64,000 nucleotides of DNA, taken from the UHGV virus genome UHGV-0021337, one strand, 5' to 3'. The notes under the pieces were generated by a model. That model made no database searches and had not been told where the DNA came from. It saw nothing but the letters and a program-made list of their open reading frames with translations. Position 1 is the stretch's first letter, and each line of letters opens with the position of its first letter. Made by a program: the position numbers and the translations under genes. This DNA is from a virus. Below are positions 462-64,000 of the stretch, in pieces.

Positions 462-2423
462 ATGGCAAAAACACTCATTGGGAAAGTTAGTGGATTAGGC
501 TCAACCGACCCCGCTTCTGCAAAACGTGTAGCAGAGCAAGTAAATGCATATAACAAAAAACTTCGCTTAGAGACTGAAAAAGCTGTTCAAGCTCTTCGTC
601 AGAAATATGATACTAAATTAGCTAATGCAGATGATAAGACTCGTATAAAACTCGAGAAAAAACGTGAAAACGAGATAATAAAACGTCGACAAGCTGCAGA
701 AGATGAGCTTGCTGCATATCAACTTCTTCTTTCTTATCAGAATCAAGAAGATGTTAAAAAGCGTAGAAGAGACATGGATAAAGAGCTAGCGAAGTATCAA
801 GCAGCTGATTTTTCAAAGGGTCTCAGTGCAAATGTTGATGCTCAGCTAAAAAATATCGGATATAATGCTGCAGAAGTTGGAAAACAAGCATTTAATGCTA
901 TTGCAGGAAGTGTTGAAAAATATTTAGATGTTTATGTTAAATACTATTCTGCAATAAATACACGGCTTCAAAATACCGGACTTACATATAATAAAATAAA
1001 TGACTTATTCAAAGGTCAGTCTGCAGCTAACCCGTACTTAAAATACGAAAGCTTACTAGAAAATTTGAACACACTTGTTGAGCTTGGTATTGCAGATAAC
1101 GTAACACAAAGAGCGTTCTTTGGGTCTATATCAGGCAAAATCGCTACAACGTTCAAAGTAGCTGAAGCTTCTATGCTCGAAATAATTCGTATACAGCAAA
1201 AAGATACAACTGCTGCTCGTTTAGGTATGGAAGCAAATTTAACACGTTTGTTCAATGCTTACTTTCACGACACTTCATACTTAAATCAAGTATATGACAC
1301 AGTTCAATCTGCGTTAATTGATACAAGCGCAATGTTTCCTTCAACAGAAGCGTCAGTCGAGTTTGAATATATAATTCAAAAATGGTTAGGTTCTCTTGGT
1401 TCAGTGGGGGTCAAAGAATCTACGCTAACTTCAATTGCACAAGGGATAAATGCACTCGCAACAGGTGATGTTGATTATTTATCCAGTAACGCTGCAATGC
1501 AAAATTTGTTAGTTATGTCTGCTTCCAGAGTTGGAAAGAACTATGGAGAGTTACTTTCAAAAGGGCTTTCCTCGTCCGATGCTAATTTGTTAATGAAGGG
1601 TGTAATTGAGTATATTCAAACAATTCTTCAGTCAAATAACAATGTTGTTAAAAAACAGTATGCGTCGTTATTTGGTGTAACAATATCTGACTTAGCAGCA
1701 TTCTCGAACTTAACAAACGATACAATCAACAATCTATACAACACAGTTCTTTCTTACGACGGCACATTAAAAGAAGTTACTGAACAACTTAAGCAAGTAG
1801 GTTCTAGAACACACATCTCAGAAATGATTGATAATGTGCTAGAAAATACTTTGATGGGCATAGGAACAGGAGTTGCAAACAACTCAATTATGTATGCCAC
1901 ATACAAAGCTGCTGATATGTTAGAGAAGATTACTGGAGGTATTCAACTTCCAACTATTGGTGCGTTCGGGAACTTCGTCGACTTAAACATGTCACTTGAA
2001 GGTATGATAAAAGGCGGAATTCTGGGTATATCAGCCGTAGGAAGTCTTGTTAGTGCTGTTAGTAACATGATTACTGGAGGATTCCTTGACCCTGAAAAAT
2101 ACAGATTAGAATCATCGGGAGAAGGATTTACAACCTGGAGTAAGCCTGGGGAACTAATTCAAACAACCTCTGCAACAACTGTTGTGTCGAATGTTAGCGA
2201 AACAGGTATGTCTCAAAGTTTAGTTCAACAACAAAAACAAACAGGCGAATCAGTAACAGGAACGCAACAAGAAACTGATATTGAAAAAGAATACTATCAA
2301 CCATATAAAACTTCTTTAGAAAGTATAATTGATTTATTGAAAGGAACATTATCCGTCAGCGTAACAAATGCTGTTCAAATCAGTAACATTTCACAGCCAG
2401 GAAGCCCTGGATTAGGACAATAG
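462..2423 (+). CDS. tail tape measure protein
   Basis: 653 aa; coiled-coil K/E/R-rich N-terminus; Gly-rich hydrophobic segments (GIGTGVANN...GGILGISAVGSLVSAV); sits after the chaperone and before baseplate genes; RBS GAGGAA. Confidence 0.6.
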   Translation: MAKTLIGKVSGLGSTDPASAKRVAEQVNAYNKKLRLETEKAVQALRQKYDTKLANADDKTRIKLEKKRENEIIKRRQAAEDELAAYQLLLSYQNQEDVKKRRRDMDKELAKYQAADFSKGLSANVDAQLKNIGYNAAEVGKQAFNAIAGSVEKYLDVYVKYYSAINTRLQNTGLTYNKINDLFKGQSAANPYLKYESLLENLNTLVELGIADNVTQRAFFGSISGKIATTFKVAEASMLEIIRIQQKDTTAARLGMEANLTRLFNAYFHDTSYLNQVYDTVQSALIDTSAMFPSTEASVEFEYIIQKWLGSLGSVGVKESTLTSIAQGINALATGDVDYLSSNAAMQNLLVMSASRVGKNYGELLSKGLSSSDANLLMKGVIEYIQTILQSNNNVVKKQYASLFGVTISDLAAFSNLTNDTINNLYNTVLSYDGTLKEVTEQLKQVGSRTHISEMIDNVLENTLMGIGTGVANNSIMYATYKAADMLEKITGGIQLPTIGAFGNFVDLNMSLEGMIKGGILGISAVGSLVSAVSNMITGGFLDPEKYRLESSGEGFTTWSKPGELIQTTSATTVVSNVSETGMSQSLVQQQKQTGESVTGTQQETDIEKEYYQPYKTSLESIIDLLKGTLSVSVTNAVQISNISQPGSPGLGQ

Positions 2424-2424
2424 T

Positions 2425-3609
2425 ATGCAAGCTTTTGACACTAATACATTAGAATATCAATATATCCAAGCATTGTTGTACGATACATATATACCTACAA
2501 TACCTGTATTTTCTTCTGCTCCAAATTCGGACACACTTAGAAGTTTGTATAGTAGTAATGTTAGGTCAATAATAGTTTCAAATTCAATTTTAAGAATAAC
2601 TGAAGAAATACCAAACAAACAATACGCTTTAACTACATTGCATCCTTATACATTTGGAAAATTTTATAAAGGATTTACAACAAACTTTATAAATAAGCAA
2701 AATTACTATAACACCGCATTACACGAGGCGTTAGGAAACTATCTTAGATTTTATAACGATTACTACAACATTGACTTGTTGCCTCTGTATAATTGTTTCT
2801 CAAACAGATATGTTGATAGTTTTTCGTTGCCTATAAGTTATAATGATTCACTCAACACGTTTGAAGGAGCTGCAGCAAAAGCTGCTACAAGAACACTTGC
2901 AGTGCCTGTTAAAAACAATAAAAGTTATCAGATAGCTATTGAAAGTTCTGGCACCGCACTAAATGCTCAACTTGCGTATTTCAATGGTTCAAAATTAGTA
3001 AGTTGTAACTCTACATCTGTTTTGCCTTCATACGTTATAGCATCGTCCTTCGATAACCCCGATGTTATAGATGTTAATATTGAAGGACTTGACTATACAT
3101 TTGAAAAGTACTTATATCTATTCATAGAGATACCTACTGAAAATACCTCTTCTATTGTTATTCTAGAACGGTACTCTAAAAATGATTTGTGTTTGAATCC
3201 AACATTGCTTAGGACAAACCTCTACTCTCAAAGAGCATTTAGTGATAAACTTATGCAGTATTTAACAAGTAATGCTATAACTCCTGTTTTTAATACACAA
3301 ACAAGTATTGCAGCATTACAGGATATTATGAGTTCTAAACAATTTGGAGAGATATATAAGGACCCTGAAGGGCATCCCAGAATTTTGTCAAACTTTAATC
3401 GAGGAACTTTTAACACCGGTTATGATAGTATGCATTCCTTCATTTACAATACGTTTAGAACTGTAAACATTACTTATCCTGGTAGCGTTGATCCTGAACC
3501 GATTCGAGATTTCATGGGATATATTGATAGCGATGTTGAGCAGTTAATACTCGACGCAAAGTCAATGCCACTTTGCAAAAGTAAGATAATTAGCACTACA
3601 GGATATTAA
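2425..3609 (+). CDS. tail/baseplate structural protein (distal tail protein-like position)
   Basis: 394 aa, directly downstream of TMP and translationally coupled (TAGTATG). Confidence 0.35.
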   Translation: MQAFDTNTLEYQYIQALLYDTYIPTIPVFSSAPNSDTLRSLYSSNVRSIIVSNSILRITEEIPNKQYALTTLHPYTFGKFYKGFTTNFINKQNYYNTALHEALGNYLRFYNDYYNIDLLPLYNCFSNRYVDSFSLPISYNDSLNTFEGAAAKAATRTLAVPVKNNKSYQIAIESSGTALNAQLAYFNGSKLVSCNSTSVLPSYVIASSFDNPDVIDVNIEGLDYTFEKYLYLFIEIPTENTSSIVILERYSKNDLCLNPTLLRTNLYSQRAFSDKLMQYLTSNAITPVFNTQTSIAALQDIMSSKQFGEIYKDPEGHPRILSNFNRGTFNTGYDSMHSFIYNTFRTVNITYPGSVDPEPIRDFMGYIDSDVEQLILDAKSMPLCKSKIISTTGY

Positions 3610-3611
3610 AC

Positions 3612-4208
3612 ATGGCAACTAAACAATTTGATTTAATTCAAAATTACATATACATATATCAATTAGATAAGTACTGTATCATTCCTTCTTATCCAGAGCA
3701 GTTAACTGACACGCTTGGGTCAACTTTTGCACAAACAAACGCATTAGCAAGAACAGCTCCTATATATTCGTATTCTTATTCAGGACCTAGAACAGTTCAG
3801 ATAACTCTCCAGTTGCATAGAGATATGCTAAATGATGTTAACAGAACAAACTTGGATTTTTCTGACAAAGTAATTGCACTTGATGATGATTATGTTGATA
3901 CACTTATCAAATATCTTCAAGCAATGGCATTACCTTCTTATAAAGCACAGGAAGTCTCTTCAAAGACTGTAAATCCTCCACTGGTCGCTATCAGGTTTGG
4001 CAATACATTATTTGTAAAGGGAATTGTTAGTGGTGATGTTCAAGTTACGTGGTCAGGGGGCTTAACACGAAATAATAAGTACCAAGAAGCTAATGTCACA
4101 TTCAGAGTTTTAGAAACCGACCCTCAAGACGCAGATTCAATTGCAAAGTGGGGTAGTTTCCGAGGACTTGAAACAGCTTTAACAAAAGGATTGCATAGGA
4201 AAGCGTAA
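3612..4208 (+). CDS. tail/baseplate structural protein
   Basis: 198 aa ORF inside the structural operon. Confidence 0.3.
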   Translation: MATKQFDLIQNYIYIYQLDKYCIIPSYPEQLTDTLGSTFAQTNALARTAPIYSYSYSGPRTVQITLQLHRDMLNDVNRTNLDFSDKVIALDDDYVDTLIKYLQAMALPSYKAQEVSSKTVNPPLVAIRFGNTLFVKGIVSGDVQVTWSGGLTRNNKYQEANVTFRVLETDPQDADSIAKWGSFRGLETALTKGLHRKA

Positions 4209-4525
4209 TGGAAACAGCTATTGATAAAACATATAAAAAGTATGATTATGTATCTAGATATGAAGCATTTCCATACTACTACAACAAACTCGACGAAAGG
4301 TATTTCTACGGAATTACTTCGTGGTTGGACACAACTGCTGGATATGCTCTTTACACAGTTCGACCTGGTGATACTTATGACAGTATTGCTCTTGATTATT
4401 ATGGAAGCCCTACTTTCTACTGGGCGATTTGTGACTTCAATAGAATTCTTGATTCTTTTTCAATTCCAGAAGTAGGCACAAAATTGAAACTTCCTGCGCT
4501 TAACGGACTGTCATTTGAGGAGTAA
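4208..4525 (+). CDS. LysM-domain baseplate protein
   Basis: C-terminal LysM consensus YTVRPGDTYDSIALDYYGSPTFYWAICDFNRILDSFSIPEVGTKLKLP; ATGA/TAATG coupling. Confidence 0.7.
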   Translation: METAIDKTYKKYDYVSRYEAFPYYYNKLDERYFYGITSWLDTTAGYALYTVRPGDTYDSIALDYYGSPTFYWAICDFNRILDSFSIPEVGTKLKLPALNGLSFEE

Positions 4526-4527
4526 TT

Positions 4528-5790
4528 GTGGCTGAATTATTATCTACAACTTCAAGAGTACAAGTACCTTACATTGTTGTTACAATAGGGAACTATACAT
4601 TTGGTTTATATGCTAAAACAAAAACAACAGTAGAAGTCGACAGAAAGTACTATACAGCAATTAAAACAACATATCCAAATTATATGAAATCTCTTGTTGT
4701 TAAGAAAGTCAACGGTACGCTTAATTCATATACTTTGACTATGGAGTATGGTATAACTCAAGCTGACGATCCAAATATGTTTGAAAAGGTTTTTGGGTCT
4801 GTATCAAAGTCAAGAAAGATCACGTTTACTTATGGAGACTGTGCAACTCCGTCGTATATGTACCGAAATGAAGAAGCACTTATAACAAATATAACATCTT
4901 CTTTAGACACAGCTAATGCAAAAATTACATACACGATACAAGCCGTCAGCTCGGCATTGAAAGCATCGGCCGGACTATTTAATTTTCCGTCTTACGCTAG
5001 TCGTAAACCTAGTGACGTTATTATCGAATTATTAAAGAATAAACAGTATGGATTGCAAGAAATATTCTATGGTATGCACGATGTATCAAGAGTGCTAAGT
5101 AAAGGCGTTATACTGCGTGATGATAAAGCAGTTTCTATTCCTGCACGTAGCAGTATAACACCTTGGGATTACATAGGATACCTTGTTACATGTATGGTGT
5201 GCAACACAGACTCTACAACAGGGATGAAAAATACTCGTTATACTCTTACAGTTCATGATGATGTTTCCGAGTTTTTGGACGGACCTTATTTTCAAATAAA
5301 CAGACTTACAACATCGCTTCAAAAATTGACATCAGTCGATTACTACACAATAAATGTTGGGTATCCTGATAAAGATTTTGTCTCGAGTTTTTCTGTAACT
5401 GACGACCAGTCATACGCACTTCTATATAACTATTCTGGTTCTATACAACAATCAAATTATGTGTATAGAATCGGTGATGATGGCAACGCAACTGAAATAT
5501 TTTCTCCTACATTGACAAATTCAAAATCTCTGTATAAAACAACTGAAGCTGATAGAACTTGGTGGACAGATTTAACACAGTTTCCAATCAAAGCAACTAT
5601 GACGATTCGAGGGCTTCTTAGAGCTATACTACTTATGTCTTACATAAAAGTAAATGTATACTATTATGGTAAAAAACACATCTCAAGTGGTGTATATGTA
5701 GTTACGCAGCAAGAAGACACTATAAATCAGCAAGGGTATTTTACAACACTTTCGTTACTAAGAGTTGGAGGAGACACTGATGGTAACTAG
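4528..5790 (+). CDS. baseplate/tail structural protein (hub-like position)
   Basis: 420 aa ORF between the LysM protein and the gpV-like spike. Confidence 0.3.
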   Translation: MAELLSTTSRVQVPYIVVTIGNYTFGLYAKTKTTVEVDRKYYTAIKTTYPNYMKSLVVKKVNGTLNSYTLTMEYGITQADDPNMFEKVFGSVSKSRKITFTYGDCATPSYMYRNEEALITNITSSLDTANAKITYTIQAVSSALKASAGLFNFPSYASRKPSDVIIELLKNKQYGLQEIFYGMHDVSRVLSKGVILRDDKAVSIPARSSITPWDYIGYLVTCMVCNTDSTTGMKNTRYTLTVHDDVSEFLDGPYFQINRLTTSLQKLTSVDYYTINVGYPDKDFVSSFSVTDDQSYALLYNYSGSIQQSNYVYRIGDDGNATEIFSPTLTNSKSLYKTTEADRTWWTDLTQFPIKATMTIRGLLRAILLMSYIKVNVYYYGKKHISSGVYVVTQQEDTINQQGYFTTLSLLRVGGDTDGN

Positions 5791-6193
5791 AGCATTTATT
5801 GAAGAAGTCGACTATGCTAACGCTAAACTTCGTGTTCGAATACCAACTTTGAATGGTGTTGAAGAAAGTACTACATCTACTCCTACTGACCAGTTGGAAT
5901 GGGCTTCCATCATTCAAATTCCTGGGGTGGACATAACATATGAAGTTGGAGATGTAGTTGTTGTAAGTTTCGAAGATAATGACTTGAGCTCACCTATTGT
6001 TTTAGGTTTTTTGAAGCTTGTTGAGAATAGTACAAAAAATCTACAAAATAGATTATTTCTAACAGCTGCAAATCTAACTGTTACAAATAACGTTACTTTA
6101 CCAACAAACATAGTTTTTAATAGCCCCACAACTGGAACACAAGCATTATCTTTTGAAGATTTGTGGGATTCTATACATAAGGAGACAAAATGA
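5780..6193 (+). CDS. baseplate spike/hub protein, P2 gpV-like OB fold
   Basis: VGDVVVVSFEDNDLSSPIVLGFL motif typical of gpV/gp5 N-domain; ATG 5780 follows GGAGGAG (track start 5765 is TTG). Confidence 0.45.
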   Translation: MVTRAFIEEVDYANAKLRVRIPTLNGVEESTTSTPTDQLEWASIIQIPGVDITYEVGDVVVVSFEDNDLSSPIVLGFLKLVENSTKNLQNRLFLTAANLTVTNNVTLPTNIVFNSPTTGTQALSFEDLWDSIHKETK

Positions 6194-6561
6194 ACGCAGT
6201 TCAGTTTCCAAATATGATATCTAATAATCAAACAAACATTGTGTACGATTACAACGCAACGTTACAAAATTTAACTGCATTGATATTATCTTCTAAGAAG
6301 ACGTTGTTCGGTGACCCTTATTTCGGAACAAACATAAAAAAACTTATATATGATAGAAATAGTGCTGTGCTAAGAGACATCGTTATTGATGACATTTTCA
6401 CAGCAATAACAATGTTTATGCCTCAAATAAGAGTTGAACGTAGAAATATAACAGTAGAGTCGTCAGGCTCTTCTTTGTATATAAATATAAAAGCTCAAAA
6501 TTTGTTAGATTACAGTTTTGACGATTACACAATAAATATGTTAAACATAGAGGAGTTATAA
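6190..6561 (+). CDS. baseplate wedge protein, gp25/GPW-like
   Basis: 123 aa; placed between the gpV-like and J-like genes as in P2/T4 baseplate clusters; ATGA coupling. Confidence 0.5.
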   Translation: MNAVQFPNMISNNQTNIVYDYNATLQNLTALILSSKKTLFGDPYFGTNIKKLIYDRNSAVLRDIVIDDIFTAITMFMPQIRVERRNITVESSGSSLYINIKAQNLLDYSFDDYTINMLNIEEL

Positions 6562-9500
6562 TGACCTCGAACGAAAAATCTCTTGCAAACATATCATTTA
6601 TAAATAAAGATTTTGAGTCTTTATGGACCGAGTTACTTGCATTAGTACCTAAATTAACACGTAAGTGGGATCCGAGTCAAGCGAACGAATCAGACCCACT
6701 TGCAGTATTACTTAAACTTATTGCAATAGCTCAAGATAAAGCAAACTACAACATCGATAAAAACATACTTGAGCTATATCCATTGTCTTTGACACAACAA
6801 TCTTCTGCATTTAATGTGTATGATGCTCTTGGGTACACTGTTGGGTGGTATAGAAGCGGCTCAGGACAAGTTTTATTGAAATATGTCGGCTCACTTGAAG
6901 CACCTCAAGGAGTTACAGTACCAAGATTTAGTCAAGTTAGTAATAACGATAGCTCTTTAGTTTATACTATAGTTAGTGACGATATTACATTTGCGGATAA
7001 GTCAGCTGCAGAAGATAGCAGAATTATTTCTACATTAGTTGACATACTACAAGGACGTTGTACCGACTTCTTAATAAACGGAGAATCAATCATTACTAGC
7101 AATAACCTCGACGCGAATAACCGACTTTATTTCATTGAGCCAAATATTGCTCAAAACGGCGTGTTTATTAAGTCAGCTGATAATACGACTTCTTGGAAAA
7201 AGGATGATGATTGGAAGAAAGTTTCAAACCTGTCTCAAGTTGCAAGTAACACAAAATGCTATCAATTTGGTGTAGACCCTAGAACTAGTTCTTGCTATAT
7301 TCAGTTTCCTGATGATATTGGGTCTTTGATTGGCGCTGGGTTGAAGATAAAGTATATTGTATCTGACGGGGAAAGTGGTAATGCACTTAGCAGAACCATA
7401 ACACAATTTTACAATAACTTGAAATTATCTTACATAAATAATGAAGGAAATGTTGACCAAGCAACTGCAAATGATATATTTTCCGTGTCTAATTCAAACG
7501 CTATTCTTGATGGTAAAAATCCAGACAACTTAGATACAACATATGATGATTATAAAAGAACTACAAATATTGTTAACACACTTGTTACATTACTAGACTA
7601 CAAGGAATATCTAAGAGACTATATACAGGATAATAGGAATATTGTTTCGAATGTTCAGGTTGCCGATAGAACTAACGATTTGTATTCTTCATATGCAGTT
7701 AAAACACTAGATGAAAATCATCAGTTCTCAACAGAGACACATTCTGCAACAGGTAATGAATTATCCGCATACGACCTCAGACTTTATCCACTTGCAAGTT
7801 CTTCAGATACTACTACAAAGTTAGGATATGACAATTCTTTCCAGTATCTCGATAACAACGAAGAACTGGTTACTGCATTAGATACTGCAAAAACTATAAA
7901 TCACAACTTTCAAGACCTGGGTTACCCGATAATACTTACTTACGACCTAGCGGGGCAAATATATCTCGATTCCAGAGTCACTGCTCAAGAAGCTCGTGAA
8001 ATACGCGCTAATGTTTTATCTGCACTATATCAATCATTTAGCGCATATAACGTGGATTTTGGTGCAGAACCGGACTACAAGAAATTAGTTGATACAATTA
8101 CAAATGCTGACAAGAGAATTCAATATGTAGCTTTACAACCTATTAGTGATTATACACAAACATCAAAAGATAACGACCCTATCGAACAAATTGATGTTAT
8201 TGAAAGGTCTGTATTAGCTGGAAAGACCCCGTGGGCAGTACTTCGCGATAAAGATAATACGACAACTATCTCAGACGCTTACAAAGATACAGTCAATATT
8301 GCTATGGGACAAGACGCTAAAGCTAACATCGTACTGAATAATAAAGTTGCATCATATCTACAAGCAGGTGTTGTGTTAACAGCAGTACAGGGAACAACTA
8401 CAACATTAGAAGTTGGCCCAAATGAACACATTAGTTTTTTAACACCTCAATATAAAGAGGACATAACTTACACTAACTACTTATACTACAAAGTGCAGTT
8501 AAGTAACGAAATTCCTGCTAACACTCCATATATATTGCAACCAGGAGAGGAAATAACATTTTACGAAACAACACAGGATTACGACGCTAACAATATTTAT
8601 GCTAAAATCTCTGCCGGAACTATTGTCAAATCAAACATATCTCTTGAAACAGATACATCTAATTATCTTACACTTAATGCAAAGAATACAATTTCTACAT
8701 TGAGTCCTGTCGAAGCATCTGATTGGGAACCTGGCGACTCTTTCTACTGCAGCTCAGAAAGTGTGTATAATCGAGTAATGGTTCCTCAAACATATTTTAT
8801 ACTACAATCTGGTGAGTATATTATATATTTGAAAGCATCAGGTGACTTCATAGTTTATGGCGAAGGAACCGCTGTTGCAACAAGCAATACACTAGACCCT
8901 AATGATTTTACTGAGTATCGTTCTGCTTCTAGTACTAACTTAGCATACTATCAAGAATCAGGTGATATATCCTCCTTGATGTCGTATTTCATACTTATCC
9001 AATACGAAAAAGACAAACTAATCTTTGGCGCAAATACAATACTTACATTCGGAGAAGGATACAAATTTATTTTTGGAAAGTCAAGTGACGAACCTCTTGA
9101 TAATTTCTGGGATACGAAATTCACGTCAAAAACGTTACAAACTATGTCGCCAGAATATGGATTCTATCGTATTACTTCTGCTGACTTACAAGGAACTACA
9201 TCAAGAAACAATGTCTACTATTCGAAAGATGGTAACAACTGGACTGCTCTTCCAACCGTTCTTTCATCTCAGACGTCAGGAGCTACGGGATGGAGATTTA
9301 TTGTGTACTTGTCTCTTGCAGTTTCTCCAAAATCTGAACAAACATTCTATACGTTCTGGTCTAAAGATTCTACACAAGCGGACGGAACATATAAACAAGA
9401 CAACACGTATGTTAAACACGTACAGTTACTAGGATACAAAAACCTTGCTAAAACATTAGTGTCAACATATGATAATACAACAAACATTCCTACTAGCACT

Positions 9501-10082
9501 TACACATTATCCGCAAGTAAGACCTTACTCAGTAGTGCTACTAGCATACCTGTCGACGAAGAAGTTGAATTGTATTCATTTATAATAGCTAATGATAAAG
9601 CTTATAACATACGTGACTCTTTTGTGTCAGTAGACGGATTAGGAACATTAAAAACTCCAAATATACGGAATGTGTACTACATATTGCCTGCAATCAAACG
9701 TGGTTCTTCCTCAGTCTCTTACTATTTATATAAACCAGGTAAAACGATAGTTACTACAAATATTGATAAAATATCTAGTTTAGTGGCAATATCCACACGC
9801 GATGGTAGTAATTTAACTCACTATTACGACGGAGCTGCAAATAAATATCAAACATTAGACACACTCTTTTCAACTGCAGGCGCTGATTTTGTTGAGCTCC
9901 AGTTAAACGCACGGTATGATGAATTGTTCTCTCCTGCATATATACCGTCCGAAACAGAAGAGATATTAAACCCTGCTCTTTTTACAACATTTTTCAATAA
10001 AAATCACGTGTTCAATAGATATGTAATATCAAAGATAGGAAATACAGATTCCCTTATTATAAGTTCCTTGTCAGTACAGTGA
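6561..10082 (+). CDS. large baseplate protein (baseplate J/gp6-like, possibly fused to a fibre/receptor-binding region)
   Basis: 1173 aa, immediately after the gp25-like gene; Ser/Thr/Asn-rich C-terminal half. Confidence 0.45.
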   Translation: MTSNEKSLANISFINKDFESLWTELLALVPKLTRKWDPSQANESDPLAVLLKLIAIAQDKANYNIDKNILELYPLSLTQQSSAFNVYDALGYTVGWYRSGSGQVLLKYVGSLEAPQGVTVPRFSQVSNNDSSLVYTIVSDDITFADKSAAEDSRIISTLVDILQGRCTDFLINGESIITSNNLDANNRLYFIEPNIAQNGVFIKSADNTTSWKKDDDWKKVSNLSQVASNTKCYQFGVDPRTSSCYIQFPDDIGSLIGAGLKIKYIVSDGESGNALSRTITQFYNNLKLSYINNEGNVDQATANDIFSVSNSNAILDGKNPDNLDTTYDDYKRTTNIVNTLVTLLDYKEYLRDYIQDNRNIVSNVQVADRTNDLYSSYAVKTLDENHQFSTETHSATGNELSAYDLRLYPLASSSDTTTKLGYDNSFQYLDNNEELVTALDTAKTINHNFQDLGYPIILTYDLAGQIYLDSRVTAQEAREIRANVLSALYQSFSAYNVDFGAEPDYKKLVDTITNADKRIQYVALQPISDYTQTSKDNDPIEQIDVIERSVLAGKTPWAVLRDKDNTTTISDAYKDTVNIAMGQDAKANIVLNNKVASYLQAGVVLTAVQGTTTTLEVGPNEHISFLTPQYKEDITYTNYLYYKVQLSNEIPANTPYILQPGEEITFYETTQDYDANNIYAKISAGTIVKSNISLETDTSNYLTLNAKNTISTLSPVEASDWEPGDSFYCSSESVYNRVMVPQTYFILQSGEYIIYLKASGDFIVYGEGTAVATSNTLDPNDFTEYRSASSTNLAYYQESGDISSLMSYFILIQYEKDKLIFGANTILTFGEGYKFIFGKSSDEPLDNFWDTKFTSKTLQTMSPEYGFYRITSADLQGTTSRNNVYYSKDGNNWTALPTVLSSQTSGATGWRFIVYLSLAVSPKSEQTFYTFWSKDSTQADGTYKQDNTYVKHVQLLGYKNLAKTLVSTYDNTTNIPTSTYTLSASKTLLSSATSIPVDEEVELYSFIIANDKAYNIRDSFVSVDGLGTLKTPNIRNVYYILPAIKRGSSSVSYYLYKPGKTIVTTNIDKISSLVAISTRDGSNLTHYYDGAANKYQTLDTLFSTAGADFVELQLNARYDELFSPAYIPSETEEILNPALFTTFFNKNHVFNRYVISKIGNTDSLIISSLSVQ

Positions 10083-29456: not shown

Positions 29457-31955
29457 ATGGCAGGATCATTGTGGGGCGAGAGTTTCGAGATTCCTGAAAC
29501 TCCAAAAGTTGTTAAAAAAGTACTTGAGAAAGTAAATCATCCGAAAGATACAAAAGTTTCAGTTACAAAGACTATTAAATCTAACAAAGTTTCCGACAGA
29601 GATAAGTTGGTTTTAATTCGTGAAAATGTCAACAGAATTTTAGGCAAGTATGGTGATGATACTCAGTTAATAAAAACAAGAGAAGAGTTAACAAAGTACA
29701 TTGACTTTGCAATAAATTGTAGTGAGATAGCAATCGATACAGAAACAGATAATAGTTTGGACCCGATAACGTGTAAGTTAATGGGTGCGTGTATCTATTC
29801 TCCTGGACTTAAAAATGTTTATATTCCTGTAAATCACGTAGATATAAATACTCGTGAACGATTTGATTGGCAGCTTACAGAGGCAGATATCAAAGAAGAA
29901 TTTGACCGTTTAACAGCTGCCAAAACAAAAGTCATAACGCACCATGGAAAGTTCGATTATGAAGTTCTAAAAATGACTACAGGTTATGTAATGTCTGTTT
30001 ATTGGGATACTCTTGTTGGTGAAAAAATACTTGATGAAAACAAGCATGAATACGGCTTGAAACATCTTTATAGAGATAAATTTGACCCCGAACAAGAAAA
30101 GTATGACATAGAAGAATTGTTTGAAGGTGTCGAGTATGCAATAGTGGAGCCTGAGTTGTTTGCGTTATATGCAGCAACAGATGCTTACATGACTTACAAG
30201 TTATATAAATGGCAATTAGAACAATTTGACATTCCTGACCATAGCAGAATTAAGAATTTATTTCTTAGCATTGAAATGCCTGTCTTACAAGTTTCCGCAG
30301 AAATGGAACTTGCAGGTATATGCTTAGATCAAGAATATGCAAAGAGGTTAAGTGCTAAGTACGCAAAGAAGCTTGAAGATATTGACGAAAAAACAGAAAC
30401 GGAAGTTGCTAAATACGAAGACATCATATCTCAGTGGCGATTAACTACAGACGCAAACGAACATCCTATCAAGAACGGTAAGATGCAGAGGTCAAAAAGT
30501 GAACAATTAAAGTTTCCTGTAAACCTTGATAGTCCAACACAGCTCGCTATCTTATTGTATGATGTTCTTAAATGTGGTGTTGTAAATAAGAAAAAGCCCA
30601 GAGGAACTGGAGAAGAAGAACTTACAGCTATTTATGCAAAGTACAAGATAGAACTTTGTAACATAATACTAGAGAGAAGAGGTCTTCTTAAGTTGATTAC
30701 AACATATATAGATAAACTTCCACAGTGTGTAAATCCAGCAGACGGAAAACTCCACGCTAAGTTTAATCAGCTCGGCGCGGGCACAGGCAGGTTTAGTTCT
30801 AGTGACCCAAATCTTCAAAACATTCCGTCTCACGAAAAATCAATAAGAATGTTATTCGAAGCAAGTCCAGGGTGTTGCCTTTGTGGTGCGGATTTCTCGG
30901 CCCAAGAACCTCGTCTTTTAACACAGTTCAGCCAGGATTCTAAGATGCTTAACGCATACAAAGAAGGAAAAGACTTGTATGCAATAATAGCTCAACAAGC
31001 CTTTCATAATGGATACTGGGATAACATGGAGCATTACGAAGATGGTTCTCCTAATCCAGAAGGCAAGAAAAGACGTGGTATCGCAAAAACTTTGCTCTTA
31101 GGAATAATGTACGGAAGAGGTTGTGCATCTATTGCAGACCAAATAGGGTGTAGTATTCCCGAAGCTCAAAAAATCATTGATACATTCTTCGAAAGTTTTC
31201 CTAAAGTAAGGGATTGGGTGACTAAAACAGAACAAGATGCTAAAAAACTAGGTTATGTTGAAGACTATTGGGGACGTAGAAGACGACTTCCTGATATTAT
31301 GAAGCCTAAGTATACAATAACTGCTAAGGGTGAAGACACATCTATTTCAAAAGATTTCAACCCGTTGTTAGGTGCATTAGGTCTCGTTAAAAATACACAG
31401 GGCACATTGACTGAAAAATGGCAGAATGCATTGTCAAAAATGAAAGGTCGTAAAGAGTACGAGCAGATAAAATTGAACGCTGCAAAAGAAGGTGTGACGA
31501 TAATCGATAATGGTGCATTTATAGCACAAGCAGAAAGGCAGTGTGTAAATGCACGTATTCAAGGTTCTGCTGCAACGTTAACTAAACTAGCAATGATTGA
31601 AGTATTCCACGATGAAGAACTTAGAACTCTTGGATTTAAACTTTTACTTGCAGTTCACGACGAGTTGATTGGAGAATGCCCGATTGAAAACGTGAAAAAA
31701 GCAGCTGAACGTTTGTCTTATGTTATGGTTAATGCTGGAGTTAAGAATAACGTCGATACACCTATGAAGTGTGATGCAGAAATAGAGGACCATTGGTATT
31801 TCAACGAATATAAAACATTGATTAGGAAGGAATACGCAAAATATATTAGTGCAGGAGATAGCAAAGAAGTTGCGTGGAGCAAACTTTGTGAGGAGCATTG
31901 TGAATCAACTCCTGAGCAGTTAAAAATAATTCTTGAAAGCGAGGAGGTAGCGTGA
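29457..31955 (+). CDS. polA: DNA polymerase I, family A, with 3'-5' exonuclease domain
   Basis: Motif A GADFSAQEPRLL, motif B RRGIAKTLLLGIMYG, motif C LLAVHDEL; N-terminal exonuclease signatures. Confidence 0.85.
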   Translation: MAGSLWGESFEIPETPKVVKKVLEKVNHPKDTKVSVTKTIKSNKVSDRDKLVLIRENVNRILGKYGDDTQLIKTREELTKYIDFAINCSEIAIDTETDNSLDPITCKLMGACIYSPGLKNVYIPVNHVDINTRERFDWQLTEADIKEEFDRLTAAKTKVITHHGKFDYEVLKMTTGYVMSVYWDTLVGEKILDENKHEYGLKHLYRDKFDPEQEKYDIEELFEGVEYAIVEPELFALYAATDAYMTYKLYKWQLEQFDIPDHSRIKNLFLSIEMPVLQVSAEMELAGICLDQEYAKRLSAKYAKKLEDIDEKTETEVAKYEDIISQWRLTTDANEHPIKNGKMQRSKSEQLKFPVNLDSPTQLAILLYDVLKCGVVNKKKPRGTGEEELTAIYAKYKIELCNIILERRGLLKLITTYIDKLPQCVNPADGKLHAKFNQLGAGTGRFSSSDPNLQNIPSHEKSIRMLFEASPGCCLCGADFSAQEPRLLTQFSQDSKMLNAYKEGKDLYAIIAQQAFHNGYWDNMEHYEDGSPNPEGKKRRGIAKTLLLGIMYGRGCASIADQIGCSIPEAQKIIDTFFESFPKVRDWVTKTEQDAKKLGYVEDYWGRRRRLPDIMKPKYTITAKGEDTSISKDFNPLLGALGLVKNTQGTLTEKWQNALSKMKGRKEYEQIKLNAAKEGVTIIDNGAFIAQAERQCVNARIQGSAATLTKLAMIEVFHDEELRTLGFKLLLAVHDELIGECPIENVKKAAERLSYVMVNAGVKNNVDTPMKCDAEIEDHWYFNEYKTLIRKEYAKYISAGDSKEVAWSKLCEEHCESTPEQLKIILESEEVA

Positions 31956-32218
31956 CTTTTACATTAGATGGCGTAGAGGCAATAGGACTAGTAGCTACAG
32001 TCATTCTTGTTGCTTCTATGTGTTTCAATACTAAAACTTTTATCGGAACATTACTTATGCGAGTTTTGAATCTTGTATGTAGTGTTGTGTGGATTATATA
32101 TGCCTGTGCTCATACGCCAGGACTTTTATCAACTTTGGTTTCAAACATTTTGTTAACAATTATCAATTTGTATTTTCTTATCATTGCCGTAAAAAATAAA
32201 GATAACTTTGGTAAGTAA
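31952..32218 (+). CDS. small 3-TM membrane protein, SemiSWEET/PQ-loop-like fold candidate
   Basis: 88 aa, three hydrophobic helices; layout resembles SemiSWEETs (TM3 LVSNILLTIINLYFLIIAVKNK) but lacks the PQ dipeptide. Confidence 0.3.
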   Translation: MTFTLDGVEAIGLVATVILVASMCFNTKTFIGTLLMRVLNLVCSVVWIIYACAHTPGLLSTLVSNILLTIINLYFLIIAVKNKDNFGK

Positions 32219-32242
32219 ACAAAATAGTTTGTATACATATAT

Positions 32243-32302
32243 AGAGGGATGTTCAGTTGTCTACTCCCGCCCTCTTAAAAATAAATTAAAACGGAGACTA
32301 TT
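32243..32302 (+). ncRNA. preQ1 riboswitch-like element in the transporter leader
   Basis: AGAGGG-21 nt-CCCTCT hairpin followed by the A-rich tail TAAAAATAAATTAAAAC and SD GGAG; the loop CTCC can pair with GGAG; compare B. subtilis preQ1-I AGAGG...CCCUCUAUAAAAAACUAAGG; sits just upstream of a COG1738 gene. Confidence 0.5.
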
Positions 32303-33022
32303 ATGAAGAAATTATTAAACGAATACAAAATTTTATTACGAAATGTACCTAGTCTAATTGTTGGCTTGTTTATTGTTGCAGTTGTTAGCTGTAATATACT
32401 TGCAAATAAAACAATTGTAAGTGTTGGAGATTGGTTCGCACTAGATGGAGGAATTGTTGTTAGTTGGCTTATATTCTTGTGTATGGATATGGTAACTAAA
32501 CGATTCGGACCAAAAGCAGCAACGCGTTTAACTTTAGTTGCAGCAGGTGTTAATTTACTTGTGTGTGGTTTATTCTACATTGTTAGCGTTATACCTTCTT
32601 CAGCTGATGACTATACAGCACTAAATGGAATTTTAGGCGGTACTTGGTTTATTCTGATGGATAGTACAATAGCATTTATTGTCTCAGGAATAATCAACAA
32701 TTTTGTAAACGCTGGTATAGGTAAAGCGTTCAGGAAAAATCCAGACGGAAAACTTGCATATGTTTCAAGAACTTATGTATCTACGTTTATTGGACAATTT
32801 ATTGACAACTTAATTTTTGCAGTTTTAACCTTTATGGTATTCAGCCCTATTTTCTGGGACGGATTTAGTTGGACATTCTTACAGTGTGTAACGTGTTCTT
32901 TAACAGGAGCAATTGCTGAATTATTGATGGAAATCATCTTCTCGCCTCTTGGATATAAAATTTGCAATAAATGGAAAGCAGAAGGCGTTGGCAATGAATA
33001 TCTTGAATTGGTAAAAGCCTAG
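32303..33022 (+). CDS. yhhQ: YhhQ/COG1738 (DUF165) queuosine-precursor (preQ0/preQ1) transporter
   Basis: 239 aa polytopic membrane protein; motifs CMDMVTKRFG and QFIDNLIFAVLTF align with E. coli YhhQ. Confidence 0.65.
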   Translation: MKKLLNEYKILLRNVPSLIVGLFIVAVVSCNILANKTIVSVGDWFALDGGIVVSWLIFLCMDMVTKRFGPKAATRLTLVAAGVNLLVCGLFYIVSVIPSSADDYTALNGILGGTWFILMDSTIAFIVSGIINNFVNAGIGKAFRKNPDGKLAYVSRTYVSTFIGQFIDNLIFAVLTFMVFSPIFWDGFSWTFLQCVTCSLTGAIAELLMEIIFSPLGYKICNKWKAEGVGNEYLELVKA

Positions 33023-33033
33023 TTCATACAGAG

Positions 33034-33070
33034 ACGACACGAAATACGGCATCGTGTCGTTTTCTTTTTG
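33034..33070 (+). terminator. rho-independent terminator after the transporter gene
   Basis: ACGACACGA / TCGTGTCGT 9-bp stem followed by TTTCTTTTT. Confidence 0.6.
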
Positions 33071-34579: not shown

Positions 34580-35530
34580 ATGCCATATTATTTTTCTGGA
34601 GCATATAATCAGGCCTTGAAAATACGGTTAAATGTTGACCAACTATTCTCAGTGTATCATGAGAAAAAATTGATTGAAAAAACAATCTTATATAAAAGAG
34701 AACATCCTGAATATACCGCAAAAATTTTCTTAGACAGTGGAGCTTTCACGCATTTCCAGAATATGAAGAAAAAGGGAATCACGCTTACTGACAACGACAT
34801 AAAGGACTACACAGATAAATATCTTTCTTTCTTAAATGAATGGGGCGAAGACTTGGAGTGCTTTGTTGGCGTCGATAGTGTACCAAATCCAGAACACGTT
34901 GACCCAACGTTTGTTCATAAAACTTGGGCAAATTATTTGTATATGTGGGAAAGGTTAAAACCGAGTATTCGTCATAAATTGATTCCTGTTTTCCACTTTG
35001 GGGAAGATTTCAATGAATTGAAGAAGTGGCTTGAATATAGACATCCAGATGGAAGTAAAGTTGAGTATCTTGGTCTTGCAATTTCGTTGGAAGGAAATCG
35101 AAAAGTAAGAATTGCTTGGGGACAAGAAGCCGAAAGAATAATCAAAGCATCTTCTAATCCAAATGTTAAGACTCACGCGTTTGGTGTTGGGGTTAAGAGC
35201 GTTATGGAAAATATAAACGTAACTTCGACGGATGCCACGAGTTGGTTGAAGCGTGCAGCATATGGAATGATTTCGGTAGACGATAAGACTGTATATATAA
35301 GTGACTTGCAAGAACAGAAGTCCGACGGCAGACATCTTAAAGATAAGTCACTAGCTTATCAAGAAGAAGTATTTAAGAAAATAAAAGAAAAAGGCTTTAC
35401 GCTTGAGCAGTTAGCTACAGACAATTACGCGAGAGCGGAATTTAACATTTTGGATACGTTAGAATGGTATAATAAATTAGAAGCATCAAAACGTATCGAA
35501 AAGGGCGCAAAGGTTGATTTAGGTTGGTAA
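34580..35530 (+). CDS. dpdA: DpdA-like DNA-guanine transglycosylase (TGT superfamily)
   Basis: TGT substrate-pocket motif KIFLDSGAFTHFQ (compare LDSGGFQ); HAFGVGV; TSTDATSWLKRAAYG matches the catalytic Asp region FDCVxPTRxARxG; no Zn-binding Cys cluster, as in DpdA. Confidence 0.55.
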   Translation: MPYYFSGAYNQALKIRLNVDQLFSVYHEKKLIEKTILYKREHPEYTAKIFLDSGAFTHFQNMKKKGITLTDNDIKDYTDKYLSFLNEWGEDLECFVGVDSVPNPEHVDPTFVHKTWANYLYMWERLKPSIRHKLIPVFHFGEDFNELKKWLEYRHPDGSKVEYLGLAISLEGNRKVRIAWGQEAERIIKASSNPNVKTHAFGVGVKSVMENINVTSTDATSWLKRAAYGMISVDDKTVYISDLQEQKSDGRHLKDKSLAYQEEVFKKIKEKGFTLEQLATDNYARAEFNILDTLEWYNKLEASKRIEKGAKVDLGW

Positions 35531-37428
35531 TCTCAGACGAGATGAAACAAGATGTTGTTGAGTTCTATAAAACAAACTCAACAACAATTACTTGTGAACA
35601 ATTTCATATAACTTGGGACAGGCTTAAAAAGATACTGGCTGAATATGATGTAGCTCCACACGATGCAAAAATTAATAGAGAACTGACATCGTTATACAGA
35701 TTCGGAGTTACTAATGCAGGAAAATCTGTAGAGTTACAGGAAAAAGCAAAACAAACAACAGCGTCAAGATATGGTAGTTCAAATTACAGGAATCACGACA
35801 AAGCTCGTCAGACCCGTATAAACAAAGATGGCTCATTAGAAGCATCATATAGAAAAGCTCAGAAAAGACAAGAAGAAACGAACTTGGCTAAGTATGGAGT
35901 TAAAAGTTATTTTCAAACTGAATTATTTCAAGAACAGTCTAAGGATACTTGCTTAGAACGTTACGGCAAAGAGTTCTATCGTCAAACTCAAGAATATCAG
36001 GACCGCGTTAAAGAAACATCTTTACAAAAATATGGAGTAGAACACTATACTCAATCTGACCAGTATAAAACAAAAGTAAGAGATACTTGCCAAGAAAGAT
36101 ACGGCAACGATTCGTGGTTTGGCTCGGAAGCTGGTAAGAATGCTATCAAAGACAGTTGTTTACAGAGGTATGGTGTTTCTAACGCTATGCAGTCGTATGA
36201 AGTGATAACGCGAGCAAAAGAAAAGCTTGTTCAGAAATATGGTGTTGACAACGTTATGAAATCTTCAGATATCAGAAGTAAGCAAGCACAGTCGAGTCGT
36301 TGTTCTAATTTTGAGCAAGAAGTTCAGCATTGGTTGTCAAATAGAAACGTTGCTTTTACTACTCACTATGTTATTAAACAAGGAGGTTTGATTCACGAGT
36401 TTGATATTGCTTTATACGAAGGTAATCAGCTCGTTTGTCTAGTAGATTGTGACGGGACTTACTATCATGGATACAACGACGATATAAATGGTAGATCTGT
36501 AAACCCATACATAGATGAATATAGAATGCTGCTTGTTCCTAAAGATGTTTTATTTCTTGTGTTACTTCCAGACACTTGGCAAGAGCAGCTTGAAGAATAC
36601 TTTAATAACAAACAAAGTTACGAGCAAGTCATATTCACCTGGTGTAAATCTATAGACTTTCCATATCCTAACATAGACAATGTTGAGGCTTCCTATAAGT
36701 CACTGGTAAAGGCAGATGTGAGTAAATTTTCGATGAACGCTCGATATGGAATGCGAGTTATCGACGCTTTTCATAAATCTATCTGGAAAGCAAATAGAAA
36801 AGGTTTCTTGAGCCCTTATGCTGCTTGGCGTGATGAAGAATTGCTACGCAGATGTATCAATAATCGTATAATTTATAAAGGTACTAACTTAGACCCTTCC
36901 AAGGTTCTATACGGTTTTAGTGCTGCAAAGATTGCTCCTAAAGTGTCGATATTTAATCCTTATCTGGCTAAGTATTTGATAAATAAGTACTTGAACGAAT
37001 TTACAACTGTTTTTGACCCTTGCTCTGGATATAGCGGCAGACTTTTAGGCGCAACATCATTGGGTAAACATTATGTAGGACAAGATATAAATGCTACAAC
37101 AGTTGAAGAATGTTTACAAATACGTGATAAGCTCAATCTCGACGCTGAATTATCTGTTGTTGATTCTTTGAGTACTACAGGAAGTTATGAGGCTTTATTT
37201 ACCTGTCCTCCTTATAGTGACAAAGAAAACTGGAACCAAGAAATTTTGAATCTAACATGCGATGAATGGATTACTCGATTTATAGAAAACTATAAATGTA
37301 AAAGATATTTATTCATTGTAGACAAAACAGAAAAGTATAAAGATTATATTGTTGAAGAAATAGAGAATAAATCACATTTTAGTGAGAATATTGAATATGT
37401 TATATTGATAAATAGAGGTAATATATGA
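35524..37428 (+). CDS. multidomain protein: about seven 23-aa [KR]YG repeats, a PD-(D/E)xK (Vsr/DUF559-like) nuclease-like domain, and a Dam-like (D12-class) methyltransferase with CPPY in place of DPPY
   Basis: Repeats aa 70-250 (AKYGV..., ERYGK..., QKYGV..., ERYGN..., QRYGV..., QKYGV...); EFDIAL...LVDCDGTYYH; motif I VFDPCSGYSGRLLG and motif IV FTCPPY; overlaps the dpdA stop by 4 nt. Confidence 0.5.
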   Translation: MVISDEMKQDVVEFYKTNSTTITCEQFHITWDRLKKILAEYDVAPHDAKINRELTSLYRFGVTNAGKSVELQEKAKQTTASRYGSSNYRNHDKARQTRINKDGSLEASYRKAQKRQEETNLAKYGVKSYFQTELFQEQSKDTCLERYGKEFYRQTQEYQDRVKETSLQKYGVEHYTQSDQYKTKVRDTCQERYGNDSWFGSEAGKNAIKDSCLQRYGVSNAMQSYEVITRAKEKLVQKYGVDNVMKSSDIRSKQAQSSRCSNFEQEVQHWLSNRNVAFTTHYVIKQGGLIHEFDIALYEGNQLVCLVDCDGTYYHGYNDDINGRSVNPYIDEYRMLLVPKDVLFLVLLPDTWQEQLEEYFNNKQSYEQVIFTWCKSIDFPYPNIDNVEASYKSLVKADVSKFSMNARYGMRVIDAFHKSIWKANRKGFLSPYAAWRDEELLRRCINNRIIYKGTNLDPSKVLYGFSAAKIAPKVSIFNPYLAKYLINKYLNEFTTVFDPCSGYSGRLLGATSLGKHYVGQDINATTVEECLQIRDKLNLDAELSVVDSLSTTGSYEALFTCPPYSDKENWNQEILNLTCDEWITRFIENYKCKRYLFIVDKTEKYKDYIVEEIENKSHFSENIEYVILINRGNI

Positions 37429-39109: not shown

Positions 39110-39832
39110 ATGGCAACAGCATTAGTTACAGGAACAAGCTCGGGAGTGGGTAAAGCAACAGCTCTTAAACTTCTAGCTATGGGAATAGATGTTATAGGTC
39201 TTGATTGGAAAGATAGTACAATTCATAGACCTCATTATTTTCACTTCAAATGTGATGTAAGCAAGTATGAAGAACTTCCTTCGCTTGACAGTTTAGGAGG
39301 CATTGAGTACATTGTTAACAATGCAGGAATAGTAACACCTAAAGCAGACGCTATCGCAGTTAATCAGATTGGATATATAAATGTATTGCAAAAATATGCG
39401 GATAACAATCCGAAGTTAAAAAGCATTGTAATTATTGGTTCATCTGCCTCGGTCAAGGGCTACGACAATCGAGAATATTGCACTTCGCAAGGTGCAAGAG
39501 ATGCATTAACCAAGTGGGCCGCTAACAACTATGGTAACGACCCTAGACACGTTTTAGTCAACGAACTTCGTCTCGATGGTATTGTAGCAGCAGACCCGGA
39601 AAAGGGTATTGAAGGTACTACTTTGGAACCTGAGCTTTATGCAGCAGATGGATTGATGGACCAAATAGCTAATCTGAGCATTTTAAAAAGGTTGGCTACT
39701 GTCGAAGAGATTGCAGAATGGATTTATTTTATTCTTGTAGTTAACACAATTGTAACTGGGCAGATAATAGATGTTGACGGAGAACTCATGGGAGCTTTCA
39801 AATTTGTTCCTTACAAAGGGTGGAATGACTAG
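39110..39832 (+). CDS. short-chain dehydrogenase/reductase (SDR) family protein
   Basis: Rossmann TGTSSGVGKA, NNAG motif; active-site region reads SS...YCTSQ (YxxxQ instead of YxxxK). Confidence 0.6.
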   Translation: MATALVTGTSSGVGKATALKLLAMGIDVIGLDWKDSTIHRPHYFHFKCDVSKYEELPSLDSLGGIEYIVNNAGIVTPKADAIAVNQIGYINVLQKYADNNPKLKSIVIIGSSASVKGYDNREYCTSQGARDALTKWAANNYGNDPRHVLVNELRLDGIVAADPEKGIEGTTLEPELYAADGLMDQIANLSILKRLATVEEIAEWIYFILVVNTIVTGQIIDVDGELMGAFKFVPYKGWND

Positions 39833-60669: not shown

Positions 60670-60760
60670 GGAAGCTTGGGGGAGCGGTTAAACTCAACGC
60701 TCTTGAAAAGCGTCGAAGGTGAGTAGCCTTCCGTCCGTTCGAATCGGACAGCTTCCGCCA
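60670..60760 (+). tRNA. tRNA-Ser (anticodon UGA), class II with long variable arm, CCA encoded
   Basis: Acceptor GGAAGCT/AGCTTCC; anticodon arm ACGCT-CTTGAAA-AGCGT; long variable arm CGAAGGTGAGTAGCCTTCCG; T-arm GTCCG-TTCGAAT-CGGAC; 3' GCCA. Confidence 0.7.
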
Positions 60761-63479: not shown

Positions 63480-64000
63480 ACGAAGCCAGATACAGCAGCG
63501 TTTTGTTAGAGCGTGTGGCTGGTCAGGGATAAGCGACGTACACGTGGAAGTCCTTAGAAGCAGTATTAGTGGAAAGAATTAAACAGCCTTTAACATCGAG
63601 AATGTGGTGTAGTAGGAACACGCCTGCTTTGGGAGCAGGAGTCGCAGTGCAAATCTGACATTTTCGACCAACATGGGGATAAGAAAGGTTTCGATTGCAG
63701 TTAAATCCAAAGTGAACCTGCAAGACTCGAGTTCAATTCTCAATATCTTCTCCAAACCAGCTCTTTTGCTGGAACATCTGTACAGAGGTAAGCAGTAACA
63801 CGTCCTAAATTACTGCACTCCAAATTGCTGAGAGTATAAAACAAGGCAAGCGTTGGCAGGCTACGCTACTTGCCCAAAGCCGCTGCTAATTGACGGCACG
63901 GAGAGGTGATTATGCTAGTCCTCTCAAAATGATTGAATAGCTCAATTTGGTAGAGCTTAAAGACTTAGGAAAGAAACTTCTTGATATCCGAAGCCTCAGG
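63480..64000 (+). ncRNA. GC-enriched, ORF-free structured RNA region (tRNA-like pieces within a larger ornate structure); runs off the window edge
   Basis: No ORF over 30 codons; GC content jumps relative to flanks; many perfect hairpins (GCAGTAA/TTACTGC, GGCAAG/CTTGCC, GAGAGG/CCTCTC, TTGCAG/CTGCAA); tRNA-like acceptor/T-arm/CCA segments. Confidence 0.3.
63597..63670 (+). tRNA. tRNA-Pro(UGG)-like gene with a degenerate T-arm (possible non-canonical or pseudo-tRNA)
   Basis: Acceptor CGAGAAT/ATTTTCG (one G-U), discriminator A, encoded CCA; D-arm GTGT-AGTAGGA-ACAC; anticodon arm CCTGC-TTTGGGA-GCAGG (U33, G37); the T-stem has only 3 bp and the loop reads TGCAAAT. Confidence 0.35.

Follow-up and report, generated by a model that had tools for sequence, protein, structure and literature searches.

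Type I preQ1-I aptamers are marked by a UC in front of the 3' strand of P1, which contains the specificity cytosine, by a UU behind the 5' strand of P1, by C8-G9 in the loop and by a conserved tail C that is followed by UA (CUA) (PMC11625349, PMC8752633). [quoted passage not shown] Type II aptamers, e.g., those of Bacillus subtilis queC and Thermoanaerobacter tengcongensis, carry AC before the 3' strand of P1 and are devoid of the UU motif; the T. tengcongensis representative is a translational switch in which the first SD bases are buried in P2 (PMC11625349). In type III, known from Escherichia coli, UU follows P1, AC occupies the specificity position, and Watson-Crick pairs of the pseudoknot cover the SD; its consensus is the smallest and most stringent of all, and it is almost exclusive to Pseudomonadota.

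In phages, riboswitches have been reported to be rare, and a survey from 2017 has listed only c-di-GMP-I and glutamine examples (PMC5473149), which are located in C. difficile prophages and in cyanophages, respectively. Clusters for 7-deazaguanine DNA modification that contain yhhQ and dpdA are known from phages. YhhQ has been described as a preQ0 transporter (Hutinet et al.), and in phage CAjan and Streptococcus phage MS1 a YhhQ-family transporter occurs together with DpdA and beside preQ0 synthesis genes. The MS1 record contains the que-Vut_1-dpdA cluster without an annotated riboswitch, the CAjan and Hutinet papers mention none, and our incomplete search of the literature has returned no paper that ties a preQ1 riboswitch to phage yhhQ/dpdA clusters.

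The leader of the phage transporter gene

The DNA analysed here is a stretch of 64,000 nucleotides of the virus genome UHGV-0021337, referred to as the window throughout. It holds phage-like genes for an SNF2 helicase, DnaB, primase, SSB, Pol I, clamp and clamp loader, as well as a UvsX-like recombinase, ThyX, and RNA and DNA ligases. An initial annotation, made from the letters, had placed a preQ1 riboswitch-like leader in front of a transporter gene of this genome and had called such a sensor uncommon for a phage that it assumed to be virulent. The features of the locus are as follows.

31952-32218, + strand: hydrophobic 88-aa ORF, preceded by the DNA polymerase I gene and followed by the aptamer (at the corresponding site of the related locus L172, the gene call has 87 aa)
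32243-32251, + strand: 5' strand of P1, AGAGGGAUG (sequence, family alignment A6, covariation of columns 1-9 with 27-35)
32252-32266, + strand: 15-nt loop, UUCAGUUGUCUACUC (alignment A6, signature definitions of PMC11625349 and PMC8752633)
32267-32275, + strand: 3' strand of P1, CCGCCCUCU (sequence, alignment A6, covariation)
32276-32292, + strand: A-rich L3 tail, UAAAAAUAAAUUAAAAC (its AAAAC is invariant across the leader family)
32293-32299, + strand: GGAG of the Shine-Dalgarno sequence (32293-96) with the three bases that follow it, presumably the 3' strand of P2 (complementarity, position)
32303-33022, + strand: Vut_1/YhhQ-family (COG1738) 7-deazaguanine precursor transporter, 239 aa (PF02592, TIGR00697)
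33034-33070, + strand: terminator-like hairpin and U-run closing the unit after the transporter (terminator scan; inner stem 33046-33060, then TTTCTTTTTG)
34580-35530, + strand: DpdA-like (phage TGT-like) protein (PHROG 887 'queuine tRNA-ribosyltransferase', 2.5e-38)

Every element of the hairpin AGAGGG-N21-CCCTCT and its surroundings, as initially annotated, has been confirmed. The arms at 32243-32248 and 32270-32275 enclose the 21-nt spacer ATGTTCAGTTGTCTACTCCCG (32249-32269), and the 17-nt A-rich tail TAAAAATAAATTAAAAC (32276-32292), which ends in AAAAC, leads to GGAG at 32293-32296, to ACTATT and to the transporter ATG at 32303, the whole element occupying the 84-nt gap between the 88-aa ORF and the transporter gene. 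The assignment of the latter to COG1738 has held as well (PF02592, E 1.5e-26; TIGR00697 'queuosine precursor transporter', 46.8 bits, just below the cutoff of 50.95). The loop had been given as 21 nt, which is correct for the letters between the arms, but according to the family alignment P1 continues through two mismatches, and the 21 nt consequently resolve into these mismatches, a closing pair and a loop of 15 nt. P1 comprises nine positions, AGAGGG(AU)G with C(CG)CCCUCU, and its 5' strand runs from six lower pairs through the mismatched A32249 and U32250 to the closing G32251; the mismatches are A32249.G32269 and U32250.C32268, and the closing pair is G32251-C32267.

Compared to the type I aptamers (Carnobacterium antarcticum; RF00522), the element has the same small, putatively H-type layout with P1 and a loop of the form UUC...UC, an A-rich L3 that runs to a conserved C, an SD immediately next to it, and the association with COG1738/YhhQ. 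The type I signature positions are found at UU 32252-53, C 32254 and UC 32265-66, where C32266 aligns with the ligand-pairing cytosine, and C32292, the conserved end of L3, is the counterpart of C31. The loop, which also houses the 5' strand of the presumed P2, measures 15 nt against 12 nt in the compact type I aptamer of ∼34 nt, it starts with UUCA instead of UUCG (C8 is kept, G9 is replaced by A), and CGG stands after the tail in place of CUA (U32/A33 replaced by G/G); set against type I, P1 is extended to nine positions with an A.G and a U.C mismatch and L3 has a length of 17 nt. Type II would share the fold class and the logic of the window element, which has UC and UU where type II has AC and no UU motif. 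The queC leader of B. subtilis, to which the element had been likened initially, is therefore the poorer comparator, as it belongs to type II and the marks of type I match better. Type III shares the UU after P1, whereas UC in the window stands against its AC. The HLout-type architecture of preQ1-II and preQ1-III is too large for the element, whose layout is that of class I. By all sequence-level signs, the element would resemble preQ1-I type I, yet it departs from two consensus features and escapes the curated model.

The initial annotation had pointed to the Rfam models as a check, and this has turned out negative: in Rfam 15, cmscan of the whole window at the gathering score has left preQ1-I (RF00522), preQ1-II (RF01054) and preQ1-III (RF02680) unmatched, and so has a scan of 161 nt (32180-32340) at E<=10. 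The test is insensitive for this lineage, since canonical-looking relatives fail as well. At the two related loci L007:1398-1447 and L176:2896-2945, canonical-looking type I aptamers with a 12-nt loop and CUA are located 5' of orthologous transporters; that of L007 (loop UUCGAAACCAUC, tail AAAACUAGG) reaches 25.7 bits against RF00522, whose gathering score is 39 bits, and that of L176 is identical over these positions and likewise stays without a gathering-level match, so that both would escape routine annotation. A cmscan of 30-odd related loci has reported no riboswitch at threshold, the sole sub-threshold PreQ1 match being that of L007, and none of the relatives with a 15-nt loop has been reported by RF00522 at E<=10. 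Among 50,697 isolated-phage records, blastn with the 1.3-kb region and with the 66-nt leader has returned nothing relevant, only matches to the A-rich tail. The transporter itself recurs in an IMG/VR viral genome of 128.9 kb, with a protein that is 95% identical to that of the window.

The genes neighbouring the leader all lie on the + strand. In the 84-nt gap, no consensus promoter has been found between the 88-aa ORF and the aptamer, which may therefore lie within a polycistronic mRNA. The hairpin has also been considered as a terminator or promoter and has been rejected as either, as it has no U-run and the gap no consensus promoter. In the terminator-like hairpin after the transporter, a longer stem, ACGACACG/CGUGUCGU, can be read from the letters. 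The DpdA-like gene follows 1.5 kb 3' of the transporter; its product has no Pfam match and no PDB sequence match and owes its assignment to PHROG 887 only. This protein likely consumes the imported base for DNA modification, and the gene regulated in the window would then feed a putative phage DNA-modification pathway, unlike those controlled by the c-di-GMP-I and glutamine riboswitches, which are phage-borne metabolite RNAs as well, of another class and with another ligand. The combination of a YhhQ-family transporter with DpdA is shared with CAjan and MS1, whereas QueC, QueD, QueE, FolE and QueF are absent among the ∼43 window ORFs scanned, and a QueC-based scan, a weak negative, has failed to retrieve the sister contig. 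Consequently, the phage may rely on a base that is made by the host or imported, a scenario raised by Hutinet et al. for DpdA-only phages, some phages encoding YhhQ.

Several further features of the window have been recorded. A 634-aa ORF (35524-37428) directly behind the DpdA-like gene has DUF7487, repeats like those of homing endonucleases and, at its C-terminus, a methyltransferase-like region; it overlaps the DpdA stop codon by 7 nt. A tRNA-Ser(tga) at 60670-60760 is called by ARAGORN only and missed by Rfam, and a tRNA at 63598-63666 (47.5 bits) is called by Rfam only and missed by ARAGORN. The region 462-10082 contains four large ORFs, one of 1173 aa, without PHROG match at E<=0.001, which may encode structural or other novel phage proteins.

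Conservation and covariation of P1 and loop

By itself, the hairpin is within chance expectation. The folding energy of the 91-nt leader is no better than that of shuffles (z = +0.47), and the pattern GTTC-N10-TCC-N10-30-AAAAC has one match in the window against 0.20 expected, with one or more matches in 19 of 100 shuffles. That the leader exceeds chance is derived from comparison, i.e., from a clade-excluded covariance model, a 31-nt invariant block and the covariation of P1. The covariance model, R3, has been built from 30 Vut_1 leaders without those of the window, L001, L088 and L172, and on both strands of the 64-kb window (128 kb) it places 32243-32301 at the top of three matches with 20.2 bits and E 0.0011, followed by a runner-up with 9.4 bits and E 0.91, where the E-values are rough owing to a shortened calibration and the alignment of R3 was guided by R1, whose training included the window. 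With a model from GTDB bacterial loci only, mostly of the G-type described below, this site is the sole match, and a weak one (9.7 bits, E 0.62).

Across 77 distinct sequences, the nine columns of P1 are paired to 88.7%, compared to 65.5% in shuffles (none of 500 as good), and the covariation score of 0.413 contrasts with at most 0.12 for slid registers. Changes on both sides are seen in seven of the nine pairs, the closing G-C is invariant in 77/77, and RNAalifold independently recovers three central pairs of P1. Four related phages show an identity of 94-100% in P1 plus loop and of 69-89% in the flanking coding DNA, and a 31-nt block in non-coding DNA is invariant in four diverged phages. 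The contrast is apparent from the identities of the window to L088 and L172:

P1 plus loop: 33/33
Whole aptamer: 96-98%
Upstream ORF: 69-70%
Spacer: 71%
First 240 nt of the transporter gene: 78-79%

The sole stem difference within the window clade is a compensatory change in L001, in which the outermost A-U has become U-A, and the other changes of this clade all fall within the 5' portion of L3. The window shares a loop of 100% identity with L001, L088, L172 and L183. In L183 (6519-6577), a P1-plus-loop identical to that of the window precedes a Vut_1 paralogue of only 48% identity, and the aptamer thus appears to move as a module that is independent of the coding sequence. Taken together with the marks of type I, the family homology and the P1 covariation support the initial reading of a preQ1-I-like variant leader at the transporter SD.

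Related leaders in phage-like contigs and Firmicutes

The transporter has 4391 homologues at E<=1e-10. Relatives with 57-95% amino-acid identity have been taken from IMG/VR, GTDB genomes, metagenomes and assemblies, and a related leader has been found at ∼100 of the 167 loci that encode them (96 of 167 by a simple pattern scan). These leaders precede transporter orthologues of Firmicutes as well as those of further phage contigs. The scanned hairpins have in common a loop of the form UUC...UC, an A-rich tail to AAAAC and a purine-rich stretch thereafter. Several types can be distinguished. The G-type, CGACAG-UUCGYUUGUACCAUC-CUGUCG...AAAACCAGG, occurs in Clostridia and is located 115-310 nt 5' of the gene, followed by terminator-like hairpins. 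The T-type, GCGRAG-UUCGGCCUCUAAAUC-CUYCGC...AAAACCAAGGAG, sits directly at the SD in Bacilli MAGs. A type with a 16-nt loop is found in phage-like contigs, and the canonical type with a 12-nt loop in L007, L176 and L146a. The GC-rich long-stem type with a Y.C mismatch beneath the closing G-C comprises the window, L001, L088, L172, L183, L004 and L092.

In the model-based alignment, all leader types fall into one family. The difference between the 12-nt and the 15-nt loops appears there as a gap just after UUCGNN, so that the extra bases are an insertion relative to L007, L176 and L146a, and UUC and UC-C are nearly invariant across the 79 sequences of alignment A6. A MAFFT alignment of the bacterial leaders alone (A3) misaligned the G-type stem, and model-guided alignments have been used in its place. 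As to pattern searches in IMG/VR, a degenerate DNA pattern for the 16-nt-loop type has given 58 matches, of which the covariance model confirmed only two, and the DNA pattern of the T-type loop has given zero matches.

Among phage-like metagenomic contigs, L002, L004, L178, L183, L212 and L228 carry a single aptamer, and L168, L171 and L173 carry tandem aptamers. The tandem arrays (L168:1344-1572, L171:1340-1573, L173:340-573; also in L170, L174 and L175) belong to phage-like contigs that are syntenic with the window, where they separate the DNA polymerase gene from the gene of a 276-aa Vut_1 paralogue. In these arrays, a strong terminator hairpin with a U-run comes after the first aptamer, and the second, which has a 16-nt loop, is placed directly at the SD; further 3' lie genes for an amidase (PF01425), another Vut_1 and an SDR. 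Another tandem is seen in L146 (1294-1475), with a 12-nt-loop and a 15-nt-loop aptamer before one gene, and in L145 and L142 (1385-1484 in both) a GC-rich hairpin is inserted within the A-rich L3 of an otherwise T-type aptamer.

The association with queuosine or 7-deazaguanine genes, given in the window by the downstream Vut_1/YhhQ gene, extends across the family loci, in which aptamers of the relatives also precede QueF-QueC-QueD-QueE operons. AC-type or divergent aptamers stand before que operons in L167 and L244. On the 152-kb contig L167, the order at 3950-8789 is Vut_1, SDR, QueF, His_Phos, QueC, QueD, QueE, and the aptamer of the operon is of the AC-type (type II/III-like), AGCAG-UAUCCUAAC-CUGCU...AAAACAAAAAGGAG. 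A short-chain dehydrogenase gene (adh_short) directly follows Vut_1 in many phage and bacterial loci (L167, L168, L171, L173, L176, L178, L179); in L176 it lies behind riboswitch and terminator, in the window at 39110-39832, 6 kb downstream. This recurrence suggests a role of the enzyme in 7-deazaguanine or queuosine salvage. Some of the contigs contain in-frame stop codons: in L173 and L174 (576-1406 in both), the reading frame of the 276-aa Vut_1 paralogue holds a TGA where L183 has TGG (Trp), and in L212 and L228 codon 10 of the gene after the aptamer reads TAG in frame. Both may reflect alternative genetic codes in those phages.

Proposed mechanism, alternatives and meaning

On the grounds given above, we regard it as probable that the leader at 32243-32299 acts as a preQ1-I-like translational OFF riboswitch, which would be nearest to type I and differ from it by a loop longer by 3 nt and a longer, mismatched P1; the element of the window is accordingly addressed as a probable sensor of preQ1/preQ0 and an expanded-loop variant of preQ1-I. 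As the pseudoknot-free MFE fold leaves the SD GGAG unpaired and hence open, an OFF switch is the simplest model. Without ligand, only the P1 hairpin would form, GGAG would be free and the Vut_1/YhhQ transporter would be translated. At high preQ1 or preQ0, the base would pair with C32266 and stack on the closing G32251-C32267, the A-rich tail would then dock in the minor groove of P1, and the SD bases just after C32292 would be engaged by the loop in a short pseudoknot helix. Ribosome binding, and with it the import of the base, would fall, and this feedback would determine how much 7-deazaguanine base reaches the DpdA-like enzyme. Counting against this explanation are the two non-Watson-Crick pairs right below the closing pair, which is expected to floor the pocket, as well as the negative Rfam scans, the CGG and UUCA in place of CUA and UUCG, the unremarkable folding energy and P2 helices that stay at the level of shuffles.

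The SD starts directly after the conserved C32292, at the site that forms P2 and the ceiling of the pocket in type I aptamers, and by this analogy the SD bases would join P2. Three options of 4 bp each can be drawn in the window, AGUU (32255-58) with GACU (32296-99), GUCU (32259-62) with AGAC (32295-98), and CUCC (32264-67) with GGAG (32293-96), and these are mutually exclusive. The last is the pairing proposed in the initial annotation, and CTCC (32264-32267) is indeed complementary to GGAG, but it would take C32266 and does not rise above shuffles. As C32266 is the expected partner of the ligand, GUCU:AGAC or a largely non-canonical P2 would fit the family better. The register slides between subtypes: CUCU may pair with GGAG in the T-type, fully Watson-Crick as CUCU with AGAG in L121 and L139, and candidate helices are CCUUA with UAAGG in L092 and UCCU with AGGA in L004. 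Loop-SD helices of 3-5 bp are drawable in nearly every member of the family, and in no lineage do they exceed shuffled loops.

The same fold and mechanism could serve another or a narrower ligand, i.e., preQ0 only, queuine or another 7-deazaguanine derivative, possibly with a stoichiometry other than that of type I, which binds two stacked ligands. The expanded loop (15 vs 12), the exchange of G9 to A and of U32/A33 to G/G would retune the pocket, RF00522 detects no member of the 15-nt-loop group, and the relatives adjoin varied 7-deazaguanine genes (QueF, amidase, SDR). However, the element retains the cytosine that would pair with the guanine-like face of the ligand as well as the second conserved C, and aptamers with 12-nt and 15-nt loops occur in tandem before one gene (L146) as well as before orthologous genes, which argues for the same signal. 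We consider a different ligand unlikely.

Similarly unlikely is a structured leader that no longer senses a metabolite, be it a constitutive pseudoknot or hairpin or a riboswitch-derived site for a protein or sRNA, which would tune translation or the stability of the mRNA. Such a loss of sensing would be consistent with the two mismatches under the pocket floor, the missing CUA motif, a P2 that is not demonstrable above shuffles and the reported rarity of riboswitches in phages (PMC5473149). It is opposed by the invariance of the loop as well as the stem across diverged phages, in which the ligand-contact positions are kept, and by the Y.C mismatch, which is common to three independent phage-like lineages (the window clade, L004 and L092) and therefore looks tolerated or selected and not like decay. 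Finally, a chance inverted repeat, an intrinsic terminator or a DNA-level operator between the two genes, for which the fold z-score of +0.47 and the 0.2 matches expected per window for the signature pattern would speak, is highly improbable, as there is no U-run after the stem, the terminator scan is blank here, the genes all lie on the + strand, an operator would not be expected to have a conserved loop and an asymmetric A-rich tail, and conservation, covariation and the covariance-model evidence effectively refute it.

Returning to the preQ1-I-like OFF switch as the preferred reading, one may go further and postulate that the element represents an unrecognised expanded-loop subclass of preQ1-I, missed by Rfam. 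This subclass would frequently precede yhhQ in gut Firmicutes and turn up again in the phages of these hosts, in some cases as tandem switches that combine transcriptional with translational control. In phages, the pocket may be retuned to the base used for DNA hypermodification (preQ0 or another 7-deazaguanine), and the riboswitch would then meter anti-restriction DNA modification. We put forward this extended proposal as a speculative one with a low probability. As the 15-nt-loop aptamers of gut Firmicutes, a sizeable group, are undetected by the curated model, riboswitch censuses may undercount the class, and the 15-nt-loop group offers natural variants for the study of loop expansion in the smallest riboswitch fold. 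In the window, a putative preQ1-type aptamer is located on the phage's own transporter gene near a DpdA-like gene, and related aptamers are present in several other phage-like contigs. If functional, these elements would allow phages to sense the pool of the base that is inserted into their DNA against restriction, and to adjust its salvage.
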